Positions 49,185 through 60,156 of a stretch of DNA of 64,000 nt are shown piece by piece (the stretch's first letter is position 1; every line of letters starts with the position of its first letter). A program made the position numbers and the translations under genes. The stretch is from Granulosicoccaceae bacterium (GTDB lineage Bacteria > Pseudomonadota > Gammaproteobacteria > CALCKW01): assembly GCA_033852095.1 (NCBI GenBank), contig JAWSVD010000029.1, positions 78,077 to 142,076 of the forward strand, written 5' to 3'. The notes beneath the pieces are model-generated. The model saw only the letters and a list, made by a program, of their open reading frames with translations, was not told the DNA's origin and did no database searches.

Positions 49185-50573
49185 TTAGTGCGCCTGCGGC
49201 CCATGCAAATTCAATGGCAAAGCAAGCGTGATACTGGCCCCTTGGGCCACAGCATCAACCCGCAATGCCCCGCCGTGCGCATCTGCCACGGAGTGCGCTA
49301 TTGCCAGCCCTAATCCGCTGCCACTGGAGGGCTCAAGCTGACCGAATCGGCTAAACGCTTTTTCCTGGTCTTCTGGCCGCAGGCCCGCTCCGTCATCCAC
49401 CACCGTGACACAGGCGTGGTCGCCGTCTAACCATGTCTTCACCGAGATTTCCCTCAGCGATCCGCCCCCGTGCACCAGGGCGTTATCAACCAAATTTTTG
49501 ATCACTTCTGAGACAAAGAATCGGTCCGCCAACACCGCTAACGGCGCGTCATGCTGCAACAGCGCAAAGCCCACCTCCGCAGAGAGAACTGTCGGCGCCA
49601 AGTCCGCACACACGTGTTTACTCAAGGCATTGAGATTCAGCAGCTCATGAGCGGATCGCCAGCTCCCCTGCCGCAACCGGTCCAGTGACAACAATTGATC
49701 CGCAACGCGAGATGACGCATAGGCCGCGCTGATCAACTCTTTTACCCGCAATTCACGCTCATGATCAGTGTTCGCATCACGCACCGCCTCCGCCATAGAC
49801 AAGACAGCAGCCGCCGGGTTTCGCAACTGATGCGCCGCATCCGAAATAAAGGCTTGATGTGAATGCAAGCTTGTCACCACTTGTTCGAACAGGCGATTCA
49901 GCGTGGCGACTATGCCCTGCGCTTCGACCGGAATAGGCCGCTTGATGGTACTGAGGTCATCGGGCGAGCGCGAGGCAATCGCATCCTGCAGATCGAGCAG
50001 CGGGCGCAGCCCTGTCTGCACCGCAAAAGACACAACGACAGCTAGCGTGGTCAGCAGCCCCACGATCAGCGCCACGGCGCGCCAGGCCAATTGCCGCGCA
50101 AAATCCACACGCGCGCTGCCGAGCTGCCACACCGTGACCGTGGTATCGCCCGACAAATACTCCGTGGAGGTGTGCTCGGTCATGCGTATAACCCGGACCA
50201 ACTCCCCCTTGTACACCCCTTCAAAATACTGCGGTTTATTGGGCTCGAACAACCAGTGCCCCGCCGGCACAGGGGGGTAGGCATAACCAGTGACATAAGC
50301 GCCGCCAGGCCCACTGACGTGGTAGAACACCTCTTCCACTGCCGCCTCGCGAATGAGGCTGCGCGTGGAGGGCAACAGCGCGTCACCGTCCGACACCGCC
50401 ACGTCTCGACTGATGGCCAATGCGGCGGCCAACAGCGAACGGTCAAAGAGCTTGTCGGCGGTATCCTGCGCCACGCTGTAGCGCCAGTAACCCAAGAGTA
50501 CGGCCATGATCACCAACGGCAATAAGATCAATACAAACAGGCGCTGGCGCAGCGAGCGGGTCGACTGGGTCAT
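49185..50573 (-). CDS. tctE: TctE-like sensor histidine kinase
   Basis: LFDRSLLAAALAI (2CSK_N), FISDAAHQLRNP, NLVDNALVHG, GSGLGLAI. Confidence 0.85.
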   Translation of the reverse strand: MTQSTRSLRQRLFVLILLPLVIMAVLLGYWRYSVAQDTADKLFDRSLLAAALAISRDVAVSDGDALLPSTRSLIREAAVEEVFYHVSGPGGAYVTGYAYPPVPAGHWLFEPNKPQYFEGVYKGELVRVIRMTEHTSTEYLSGDTTVTVWQLGSARVDFARQLAWRAVALIVGLLTTLAVVVSFAVQTGLRPLLDLQDAIASRSPDDLSTIKRPIPVEAQGIVATLNRLFEQVVTSLHSHQAFISDAAHQLRNPAAAVLSMAEAVRDANTDHERELRVKELISAAYASSRVADQLLSLDRLRQGSWRSAHELLNLNALSKHVCADLAPTVLSAEVGFALLQHDAPLAVLADRFFVSEVIKNLVDNALVHGGGSLREISVKTWLDGDHACVTVVDDGAGLRPEDQEKAFSRFGQLEPSSGSGLGLAIAHSVADAHGGALRVDAVAQGASITLALPLNLHGPQAH

Positions 50574-51238
50574 TTATCGGCCTCGAGCATATACCCCAAT
50601 CCGCGCGCAGTTTTGATGCGTATGCCGTGCCCGGCAAGGCGTTTTCGCAAGCGCGAAATATGCGGCTCCACAGCCGTGTCGTCGACGTCTGCTCCCACCC
50701 CGTAGACGTGATCGGTCAGCTGATCCTTGGACACCAGCCTGCCGCGGCGCTCAAGCAGGCACTCCAGTGTGGCGAGTTCACGGCGGGGAATTTCCAGCGC
50801 CTCTCCCCCGGCCAGCAGCTGCCGTGTGCCGCGGTCAAAACTCAGCTCTCCCACACGTTCTGTCGCGCCGTAGTCGATGTCTTTGCGTCGTGACAAGGCC
50901 CGTATGCGCGCCTCCAACTCATCCATTTCAAAGGGTTTGACCAGGTAATCGTCCGCCCCCGCATCCAGCCCCATTACCCTGTCCCGGGTGTCGCTGCGGG
51001 CGGTCAGCAGAATAACCGGCGTATTGGCGCCGCGGGCCCTGAGTGCACGCAACACGTCCAAGCCGCTCATTTTGGGGAGGTTAATGTCCAGCACCAGGAG
51101 ATCTGCACCTTCAGTCGCGAGAAACTGGTCCGCCGCTGCGCCGTCGTACAGCAAGTCCACGGCATGCCCTCTGTCGCGCAGGCGATAGGCAATTGCATTG
51201 GCCAGTGTCTGGTTGTCCTCGACCACTGCTATTCGCAT
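50570..51238 (-). CDS. tctD: TctD-like response regulator
   Basis: MRIAVVED, VLDINLP, DDYLVKPF, HISRLRKRL, ARGLGY. Start reassigned to 51238. Confidence 0.88.
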   Translation of the reverse strand: MRIAVVEDNQTLANAIAYRLRDRGHAVDLLYDGAAADQFLATEGADLLVLDINLPKMSGLDVLRALRARGANTPVILLTARSDTRDRVMGLDAGADDYLVKPFEMDELEARIRALSRRKDIDYGATERVGELSFDRGTRQLLAGGEALEIPRRELATLECLLERRGRLVSKDQLTDHVYGVGADVDDTAVEPHISRLRKRLAGHGIRIKTARGLGYMLEADK

Positions 51239-59099: not shown

Positions 59100-60156
59100 A
59101 TCCCTACAAGAAGCGCGTCGGCAACTCGAAATATGCAATGCCTGTCGCTACTGCGAGAGCTATTGCTCGGTGTTTCCCGCGGTGCACGCGGTGCGCGCCT
59201 TCAGCGACGGCGACCTGACCCAGTTCGCCAATCTGTGCCACAACTGCCGAGGCTGCTATTACGCCTGCCAGTACACACCGCCCCACGGCTTTGCTCTCAA
59301 CCTGCCCAATGCACTGGCCGAGCTACGGCAGGACAGCTGGGAGGAGTTTGCCGCCCCGCGGGTTGTGGGCCGGCTGTTTCAGCGCAACGGCCTGCTGCTG
59401 GCAACTGCCACCGCGCTCTGTCTCGCGCTGCTGCTGGGCCTGATACGACTGGCGGGCGACGGCGGTGGCGAGGGTTTCTACGCCGCGCTGCCGCACACAC
59501 TGATGGCCGGGATCTTCATGCTGGCCTCGCTGTTTCCACTGCTGAGCTTGACGGTCAGCCTGCGCCGTTACTGGCGCGCCACCGAGGGCGAATGGATCCG
59601 CGGCTCGCAGCTGCTGGCCGCCCTGAAATCCGCGGCAACAGCCCACAACCTCGACGGCGGACACGGCGAGGGCTGCAACTTTGAAGACGAAGACCGCTAC
59701 TCACGCGCCCGGTTGTTTGCACACCAATTAGTGATGTATGGCTTTATGCTATGTTTCGCCGCGACCGCTGCGGGGACAGTGATGCACTACCTGCTGGACA
59801 AGCCTGCGCCCTACCCGCTCTGGTCCGCGCCCAAGGTGTTCGGCATCAGCGGCGGGCTCGCGCTGAGTGCAGGCAGCGCCTGGATGGTCCTGCTGAAGCT
59901 GCGCGCCGATAAAACGCTGGCTGCGCCCTCCGCCTGGGGCGGCGAGATAGAATTCATCGCCCTGCTCGGTGCCATGGCGCTCACCGGACTGCTGCTATTC
60001 GTTTTAGGCAGCACGGCCGCCATGCCCACGCTGCTGGCCGTTCATCTGGGCACGGTGCTGACCTTTTTCTTGCTGACCCCTTTCAGCAAAATGGCCCACG
60101 CCTTTTACCGCTTGGCAGCACTGATCAGGGACGAACAATGCAAACAGCAGCGCTGA
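59089..60156 (+). CDS. tcuB: Tricarballylate utilization 4Fe-4S membrane protein
   Basis: ICNACRYCESYC.VFP, ANLCHNCRGCYYACQY.PPH, HLG.V...F...PFSK.AH..YR. Start reassigned to ATG 59089. Confidence 0.9.
   Translation: MQDESLQEARRQLEICNACRYCESYCSVFPAVHAVRAFSDGDLTQFANLCHNCRGCYYACQYTPPHGFALNLPNALAELRQDSWEEFAAPRVVGRLFQRNGLLLATATALCLALLLGLIRLAGDGGGEGFYAALPHTLMAGIFMLASLFPLLSLTVSLRRYWRATEGEWIRGSQLLAALKSAATAHNLDGGHGEGCNFEDEDRYSRARLFAHQLVMYGFMLCFAATAAGTVMHYLLDKPAPYPLWSAPKVFGISGGLALSAGSAWMVLLKLRADKTLAAPSAWGGEIEFIALLGAMALTGLLLFVLGSTAAMPTLLAVHLGTVLTFFLLTPFSKMAHAFYRLAALIRDEQCKQQR

Follow-up and report, generated by a model that had tools for sequence, protein, structure and literature searches.

The tricarballylate locus tcuRABC of Salmonella enterica (Lewis et al. 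2004; Lewis and Escalante-Semerena 2006, as cited in PMC5630845 and PMC2606687) is the described system closest to a nine-gene cluster found in a 64,000-nucleotide (nt) stretch of contig JAWSVD010000029.1 from a Granulosicoccaceae bacterium. This whole stretch is referred to as the window, and its gene content was taken from family scans and a listing of open reading frames (ORFs). All parts of the cluster belong to known families and the cluster itself is common in databases; its combination of genes is a variant of the tcuRABC system. With the Salmonella locus it shares the TcuA and TcuB families, a LysR-type regulator adjoining tcuAB, and the expected product cis-aconitate. It differs in that TcuC is missing, that its LysR protein is no clear orthologue of TcuR, and that a tripartite tricarboxylate transporter (TTT), a PrpF-family isomerase, a universal stress protein (USP) and a two-component system have been added. 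In Salmonella pHCM1, tcuR, tcuA and tcuB are followed by a carrier of the major facilitator superfamily (MFS) and tcuR is co-directional, whereas the LysR gene of the window is divergent from tcuAB. With a probability of roughly 55 %, the cluster can be read as a two-module catabolic system for propane- and propene-tricarboxylic acids that ends in cis-aconitate, the substrates being suggested by the protein families and the gene context.

Other parts of the cluster have counterparts elsewhere. The transporter half resembles the TctDE-TctCBA system of Salmonella and Pseudomonas (TC 2.A.80) in its divergent two-component system, its TctA domain and a binding protein with the TTT fold. Unlike in that system, the TctB-like part has no gene of its own ahead of the TctA gene and appears to be fused to the C-terminus of TctA. 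In addition, the binding protein lies outside Pfam TctC, and translational coupling links the permease gene to catabolic genes. A PrpF-superfamily isomerase that is co-transcribed with a carrier and has a dedicated regulator is also known from tarRAB of Bacillus velezensis and from TbrA of Bacillus thuringiensis, and aconitate isomerase activity has been proven for both TarA and TbrA (PMC11495376). In the tarRAB system, trans-aconitate is imported, isomerised to cis-aconitate and passed to the tricarboxylic acid (TCA) cycle (PMC11495376). However, the carrier there is of the MFS type, the regulator is of another type, TcuAB is absent, and the window isomerase shares only about 36 % identity with the Bacillus type. 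The E. coli locus ybhD-ybhHIJ (3623-9765) likewise pairs a YbhH-like isomerase with a putative tricarboxylate carrier and a YbhD-like LysR regulator, but YbhI, of the divalent anion/sodium symporter (DASS) type, and the aconitase-family hydratase YbhJ take the place of the TTT and TcuAB. The gene order in E. coli is ybhD (LysR), ybhH, ybhI (putative tricarboxylate transporter) and ybhJ, whose product scores 297 bits on Pfam Aconitase. This locus has been linked only loosely to malate (PMC9068703); its genes show a coherent tricarboxylate theme. Finally, the (4E)-oxalomesaconate isomerases LigU and GalD (PDB 6P3H/J/K), which act in protocatechuate 4,5-cleavage and in gallate breakdown, share with the window isomerase the fold family, the Lys/Cys pair and an NCBIfam model, but the window isomerase belongs to a different clade and has no LigJ or LigK neighbours.

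The evidence that carries this reading comes from a comparison of 80 related loci from 38 named genera, of which 76 or 66 had enough flanking DNA for the respective counts. Most loci belong to the Rhodobacterales (56), and the others to the Hyphomicrobiales (8), the Rhodospirillales (4), the Gammaproteobacteria (4) and other groups (8). The long permease of about 676 amino acids (aa), with its presumed fusion, was found in 76/76 loci at identities of 69-90 %, the isomerase gene follows it directly in 72/76, and tctDE is present in 71/76. TcuA and TcuB occur together within 10 kb in 44 of the 66 loci, and TcuC occurs in none of them (0/66). Many marine bacteria thus carry the cluster in nearly the same form. 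Since the same gene order recurs in dozens of genomes, the arrangement is not due to chance. Based on these presence counts, the regulators, the transporter and the isomerase form the core of the cluster, and a TcuA-type dehydrogenase is its frequent and recurrent partner.

A USP gene occupies the same position in 30/66 loci, a LysR gene is present in 12/66 and a GntR regulator in 36/66. An orthologue of the window LysR protein (49-61 % identity) adjoins tcuAB in 10 loci, and a GntR regulator stands there instead in 32. The exact order of the window, including USP and LysR, was found in Shimia, Pelagimonas, Aliiroseovarius and their relatives. In most other Rhodobacterales, genes for a D-2-hydroxyacid dehydrogenase (58/66 loci), a duplicated AbrB-type membrane protein (41/66) and a GntR/FCD regulator sit between the isomerase or USP gene and tcuAB, for example in the plasmid locus of Pseudosulfitobacter (8040-10980). 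Among the loci that lack canonical TcuAB, those of Amylibacter (17187-18671) and Planktomarina (11890-13470) encode a divergent TcuA that is about 30 % identical to the window TcuA, reaches 525-531 bits on NF006130 and has no adjoining TcuB. A distant version of the cluster on the Paracoccus marcusii plasmid NZ_CP157013 (174847-189908) combines an isomerase of 48 % identity with the fused permease and tcuAB. This version also contains two TTT binding proteins, a convergent tcuBA-GntR arrangement, an AbrB-type protein, an Ldh-family oxidoreductase and a dehydrogenase of the isocitrate/isopropylmalate family.

The binding protein of the transporter had been labelled TctC in the earlier note. Pfam TctC matches it only with an E-value of 0.12, and a sequence search of the PDB gave only an E-value of 0.23, but profile and fold comparisons gave a clear assignment. 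A profile of 80 members of its family, which comprises 4700 representative clusters (E <= 0.001), was aligned by hhalign with a canonical TctC encoded elsewhere in this genome, at a probability of 99.4 % (E 2.6e-21, 283 columns). The AlphaFold model has a predicted local distance difference test (pLDDT) value of 94.6, and the top folds found for it were BugE, MatC, TphC, BugD, Bug27 and AdpC, all of them TTT binding proteins, with template modelling (TM) scores of 0.74-0.79 on the target. A signal peptide is visible. As judged by profile and predicted structure, the protein thus belongs among the TTT binding proteins, as part of a large and divergent subfamily that Pfam TctC misses. It is 70-87 % identical to proteins of many marine bacteria from the Rhodobacterales and other groups. 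The spacer between its gene and the permease gene can form three strong hairpins, the last of which is followed by a U run (-78 kcal/mol, z -4.9 compared to shuffled sequences), and might raise the output of the binding protein, either by partial termination or as a stabiliser.

The permease matches Pfam TctA (PF01970) with 379 bits over residues 24-445, covering the whole model, and its last 190 or so residues are hydrophobic. The C-terminal 196 residues match Pfam TctB with an E-value of 7.3e-5 and 23.4 bits, under the cut-off of 29.1 bits. An hhalign comparison of this tail with a profile of six separate TctB proteins of the genome gave an E-value of 1.7e-4 over 142 co-linear columns at a probability of 49 %, and a comparison with one TctB sequence gave no match. 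No separate tctB gene is present in the cluster. A fusion of TctA and TctB is likely on these grounds rather than proven; of the earlier label tctA(B), the TctA part is firm and the B part corresponds to weak but co-linear matches. The genome also carries eight canonical TTT systems. A second long TctA of the fused type, a 701-aa open frame with 40 % identity to the permease studied here, was found on contig C522 (389-3690). Its gene is preceded by one for a binding protein within the reach of Pfam TctC (51 bits), and fragments of a short-chain dehydrogenase stand ahead of both.

The isomerase matches Pfam PrpF (PF04303) with 313 bits. Among solved structures, that of E. coli YbhH is the closest (6OTV, E 8.5e-91), followed by LigU (2.5e-82). 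Lys61 and Cys95 correspond in the alignment to Lys66 and Cys100 of LigU, and both were retained in 56/56 sequences. In LigU and PrpF, this Lys/Cys pair is catalytic. In trees labelled by gene context, which were built without sequences of TarA, Adi1, Shewanella PrpF, LigU and GalD, the transporter-linked isomerases form one clade, with a support of 100 in the Shimodaira-Hasegawa-like approximate likelihood ratio test (SH-aLRT), and the isomerases linked to LigK or to an amidohydrolase form another (SH-aLRT 96-97). E. coli YbhH was placed as the sister of the transporter-linked clade (SH-aLRT 85-93). A protein from a Bacillus thuringiensis plasmid, encoded beside an exporter of the drug/metabolite transporter (DMT) type, falls on a long branch in the non-LigU half of the tree. 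This plasmid pair matches the published tbrA-tbrB operon of an aconitate isomerase and its exporter (PMC11495376).

In the proposed pathway, a periplasmic tricarboxylate would be sensed by TctE and TctD, and TctD probably binds the repeat GCAAGnTT-N3-GCAAGnTT and thereby turns on the operon of the first module. This module would consist of tctED and the opposite-strand operon for the binding protein, the TctA-TctB permease, the isomerase and the USP. The acid would be passed by the binding protein to the single-chain permease, and the translationally coupled isomerase would then move or flip a double bond, most likely converting trans-aconitate into cis-aconitate, with a possible tuning of transport by the USP. 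In the second module, composed of LysR and the divergent tcuAB, TcuA would convert tricarballylate into cis-aconitate and TcuB would transfer the electrons to the quinone pool. Since no TcuC or other dedicated carrier was found, tricarballylate probably enters via the same TTT system. The absence of tcuC, already stated in the earlier note, could be extended from the cluster, which contains no MFS gene, to the 96.7 %-complete assembly, where a tblastn search with TcuC of pHCM1 returned no homologue at E <= 1e-5. The resulting cis-aconitate would enter the TCA cycle through aconitase, and the genome does contain a gene of the aconitase family, with an open frame of 935 aa.

This pathway retains the variant import route of the earlier note in that TTT, PrpF-family isomerase and TcuAB do travel together, TcuC is missing and the isomerase belongs to a clade of its own; tricarballylate and trans-aconitate as its substrates are drawn from family membership and context. 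The former description of two regulators over one pathway is better replaced by two modules, namely a transporter/isomerase operon controlled by TctDE and a tcuAB operon controlled by LysR. The suggestion that cis-aconitate feeds the isocitrate lyase encoded in the window was discarded because its gene (19572-21152) lies on the other strand about 28 kb away and because cis-aconitate requires aconitase and not isocitrate lyase. A more specific version is put forward tentatively, at somewhat less than even odds. According to it, the transporter-linked PrpF clade and the binding-protein subfamily invisible to Pfam would form a dedicated and widespread marine system for the uptake and isomerisation of trans-aconitate, or of a related unsaturated tricarboxylate. 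One carrier would be shared with the oxidation of tricarballylate by TcuAB, and TctD would switch the system via its operator.

Several observations weigh against the two-module tricarboxylate reading. The assignment of the permease tail to TctB is weak. The transporter-linked isomerases have clade-specific residues near the catalytic pair (T94, T60, R17 and W273), the corresponding residues of LigU and PrpF being N, S, K and either H or G. Because of these substitutions of their own beside the catalytic residues, they may act on something other than aconitate. YbhH keeps N94, S60 and H273 and shares R17 with them. In addition, the placement of YbhH and of the long-branched TbrA-like protein comes from quick trees only. 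No companion gene accompanies the core more often than that for the D-2-hydroxyacid dehydrogenase, which has no role in the model and is absent from the window. The AbrB-type protein could be the real tricarballylate carrier in the relatives, in which case the link between transporter and TcuAB would be a mere neighbourhood effect. Moreover, a literature search returned no publication that deals with this type of cluster, with the use of tricarballylate by marine bacteria or with the function of YbhH, YbhI and YbhJ.

Some of these points lead to an alternative in which two unrelated modules happen to be adjacent. Here, the transporter, isomerase and USP, together with the dehydrogenase of the relatives, would serve another hydroxy-, oxo- or unsaturated carboxylate, and LysR-tcuAB would be a self-contained unit with a different carrier. 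The core occurs without canonical TcuAB in 22/66 loci and is accompanied more often by the 2-hydroxyacid dehydrogenase than by TcuAB. TcuAB has its own regulator, either LysR or GntR, and in the relatives often an AbrB-type membrane protein, and no repeat of the TctD type lies upstream of tcuA. The residues beside the Cys and Lys of the isomerase would also fit this explanation. Nevertheless, the association recurs in divergent versions of the cluster, including the one whose isomerase is only 48 % identical, and in the loci with a divergent TcuA. Furthermore, this genome has no TcuC and no AbrB-type candidate carrier, and both enzyme families are known for C6 tricarboxylates that yield cis-aconitate. 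This alternative is considered unlikely, though it is the main rival of the proposed reading and deserves to be taken seriously.

The regulatory side of the first module bears on a further alternative. The best NCBIfam match of the response regulator is TctD (NF012023) with 220.8 bits, which is below the equivalog cut-off of 337 bits, and both the architecture and the position of TctDE match the tct locus. The start of tctD was set to the ATG at 51238, based on a CGCAT that is conserved across loci and on a check of the ATG; the ORF is open to a GTG at 51259. In the alignment of the region between tctD and the binding-protein gene from 14 taxa, GCAAGnTT-N3-GCAAGnTT forms a sharp footprint, and the repeat at 51249-51267 contains 12/19 invariant columns. 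The direct repeats are one helical turn apart, in line with a regulator of the OmpR family. No second match was found in the window, even with two mismatches, and none upstream of tcuA. In 52/80 related loci, a single exact copy occupies the same position ahead of the binding-protein gene. The repeat is a candidate TctD operator, with TctD as its presumed binding partner. An ordinary Salmonella-like TctDE-TctCBA system for citrate uptake, with isomerase, USP and TcuAB as unconnected neighbours, would agree with the family match of the response regulator and with the divergent orientation of regulators and transporter seen in the classical tct locus. It is improbable, given a binding protein far from canonical TctC, the translational coupling of the permease, isomerase and USP genes, the isomerase gene following the permease gene in nearly all loci, and the eight other canonical TTT systems of the genome.

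The automatic name of the isomerase suggests that it might be a true 4-oxalomesaconate tautomerase or isomerase of the GalD/LigU type, and that the transporter might import a tricarboxylate formed by ring cleavage during the breakdown of gallate or protocatechuate. The protein narrowly passes the 4-oxalomesaconate tautomerase model NF033377 (454.3 compared to a cut-off of 440), it matches the LigU structures well, and its orthologues carry this name at NCBI. It fails the PrpF equivalog model TIGR02334 (161.7 compared to a cut-off of 440.55), and the family scan found no aconitase-family gene, the AcnD neighbour of PrpF proper, in the cluster. However, neither a LigJ/GalB hydratase nor a LigK/GalC aldolase is encoded in the cluster or in the scanned flanks of the relatives, and the partner enzymes here are TcuAB. 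A paralogue on contig C487 (147-3971), which is 39 % identical, reaches 510 bits on NF033377 and adjoins a LigK-type aldolase, an extradiol dioxygenase and a GcvA-like LysR regulator. These genes, on a short contig, look like part of a meta-cleavage cluster for gallate or protocatechuate. Due to this better-scoring LigK-linked paralogue, the separate clades and the context of the YbhH locus, the oxalomesaconate name is doubtful, and the isomerase of the cluster is probably not the oxalomesaconate enzyme of this genome. The ring-cleavage explanation as a whole is regarded as quite improbable.

Tricarballylate oxidation, as proposed for the second module, is consistent with the families of its two enzymes. 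TcuA reaches 653 bits on NF006130 (cut-off 369) and 595 bits on TIGR02485, and its N-terminus contains the dinucleotide-binding motif IIGGGNAA. TcuB reaches 360 bits on TIGR02484 (cut-off 246.6) and has the cysteine motif CNACRYCE, of the CxxCxxC type, near its N-terminus. The identities to the pHCM1 copies are 55 % for TcuA and 38 % for TcuB. TIGR02485 is named 'CobZ_N-term' and one plasmid record labels a homologue cobZ, but the idea that TcuA and TcuB make up a split precorrin-3B synthase of the CobZ type, serving the aerobic synthesis of cobalamin, was rejected as highly improbable. There are no cob genes in or beside the cluster, the two are separate proteins as in Salmonella and score above the cut-offs of the respective equivalog models, and they are conserved together with a carboxylate transporter and an isomerase. 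The USP of the first module matches Pfam Usp with 69 bits in two to three stretches. By analogy with TeaD, it may tune the activity of the transporter.

The start of lysR was set by conservation across loci, the ORF being open to 57652. The LysR protein is closer to E. coli YbhD (34 % identity, 164 bits) than to Salmonella TcuR (29 %, 66 bits). A palindrome over the lysR start is imperfect in the window; at the same position, Aliiroseovarius has an inverted repeat that is perfect over 10 bp, and seven other loci have near-perfect ones. It is a candidate LysR operator, a role suggested by its position and conservation. A sigma-70-like promoter of lysR was predicted at 57672-57644. Only about 7 nt separate its -10 hexamer from the conserved ATG at 57637 that follows, and because of this short distance the lysR mRNA may be leaderless or nearly so.

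The cluster is flanked by genes for elongation factor P (48347-48922) and a fatty-acid desaturase (60263-61243), and its features are listed in Table 1. All nine genes were verified in the positions and orientations given before, with tctED divergent from the transporter, isomerase and USP genes and LysR divergent from tcuAB. Of the ATGA overlaps described within the transporter operon, two were found, at the junctions of permease and isomerase (54675-54678) and of isomerase and USP (55772-55775). Another ATGA overlap joins the tctD stop to the tctE start. The tcuA and tcuB genes overlap by 11 nt, with AGGAGG 9 nt ahead of the tcuB ATG.

Table 1. Genes and candidate regulatory elements of the cluster, in positions of the window.
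Feature	Position	Strand	Basis
TctE-like sensor histidine kinase, 462 aa	49185..50573	-	Pfam 2CSK_N (87.8 bits), HisKA, HATPase_c
TctD-like OmpR-family response regulator, 222 aa from conserved ATG	50570..51238	-	Pfam Response_reg and Trans_reg_C
Direct repeat GCAAGTTT-CAC-GCAAGCTT, 11-bp spacing, candidate TctD operator	51249..51267		Intergenic alignment
TTT-type periplasmic solute-binding protein, divergent subfamily, 363 aa with signal peptide	51375..52466	+	Profile and fold comparison
Structured 181-nt spacer from binding-protein gene to permease gene	52467..52647	+	RNA fold
TctA permease with likely fused C-terminal TctB-like domain, 676 aa	52648..54678	+	Pfam TctA; weak TctB matches
PrpF-family isomerase, transporter-linked YbhH-like clade, candidate aconitate isomerase, 366 aa	54675..55775	+	Pfam PrpF, tree
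Tandem USP, 273 aa	55772..56593	+	Pfam Usp
LysR-type regulator, 305 aa from conserved ATG	56720..57637	-	Pfam HTH_1 and LysR_substrate
Imperfect palindrome AATTTATGCG-CATAT-CGGGATAATC over LysR start, candidate LysR operator	57625..57649		Comparison across loci
TcuA, family of flavin adenine dinucleotide (FAD)-dependent tricarballylate dehydrogenases, 461 aa	57714..59099	+	NF006130, TIGR02485
TcuB, membrane 4Fe-4S protein, by family re-oxidising TcuA, 355 aa	59089..60156	+	TIGR02484

In the permease tree, the window sequence groups with that of one genome of the same genus and a metagenome-assembled genome (MAG) of Granulosicoccus, and this group is nested inside sequences of the Rhodobacterales. 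Three other genomes of the same genus branch apart. The flanks of the cluster differ between species of the genus, its GC content is 61.0 % compared to 57.1 % for the genome, and in Pseudosulfitobacter the cluster is located on a conjugative plasmid. Together, the nested tree position, the differing flanks, the GC content and the plasmid copy point to an old transfer between classes. A recent transfer is not supported, as even the closest copies share only 66-78 % DNA identity with the cluster and the shift in GC content is small. Based on tree and context, the cluster appears to be horizontally mobile among marine Proteobacteria.

The proposed two-module system has consequences for annotation and for the families involved. 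The label '4-oxalomesaconate tautomerase' carried by the isomerase in the annotated records examined is probably wrong, and the cluster offers a lead to the function of E. coli YbhH, whose structure has been solved. If the reading is true, it would supply a tricarballylate transporter for bacteria without TcuC. The more specific version, if true, would give a first substrate both to YbhH-like isomerases and to single-chain TctA-TctB transporters. For regulators of the TctD type, the cluster also provides a candidate operator. Alga-associated Rhodobacterales frequently carry the cluster, and it is present in the Granulosicoccus-like gammaproteobacterium studied here and on the plasmid of a diatom-associated Pseudosulfitobacter. 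Because its carriers are associated with algae and diatoms, the substrate is probably an alga-derived acid. If the more specific version holds, acids of the aconitate and tricarballylate type would be a genuine currency of carbon exchange between algae and the bacteria associated with them.

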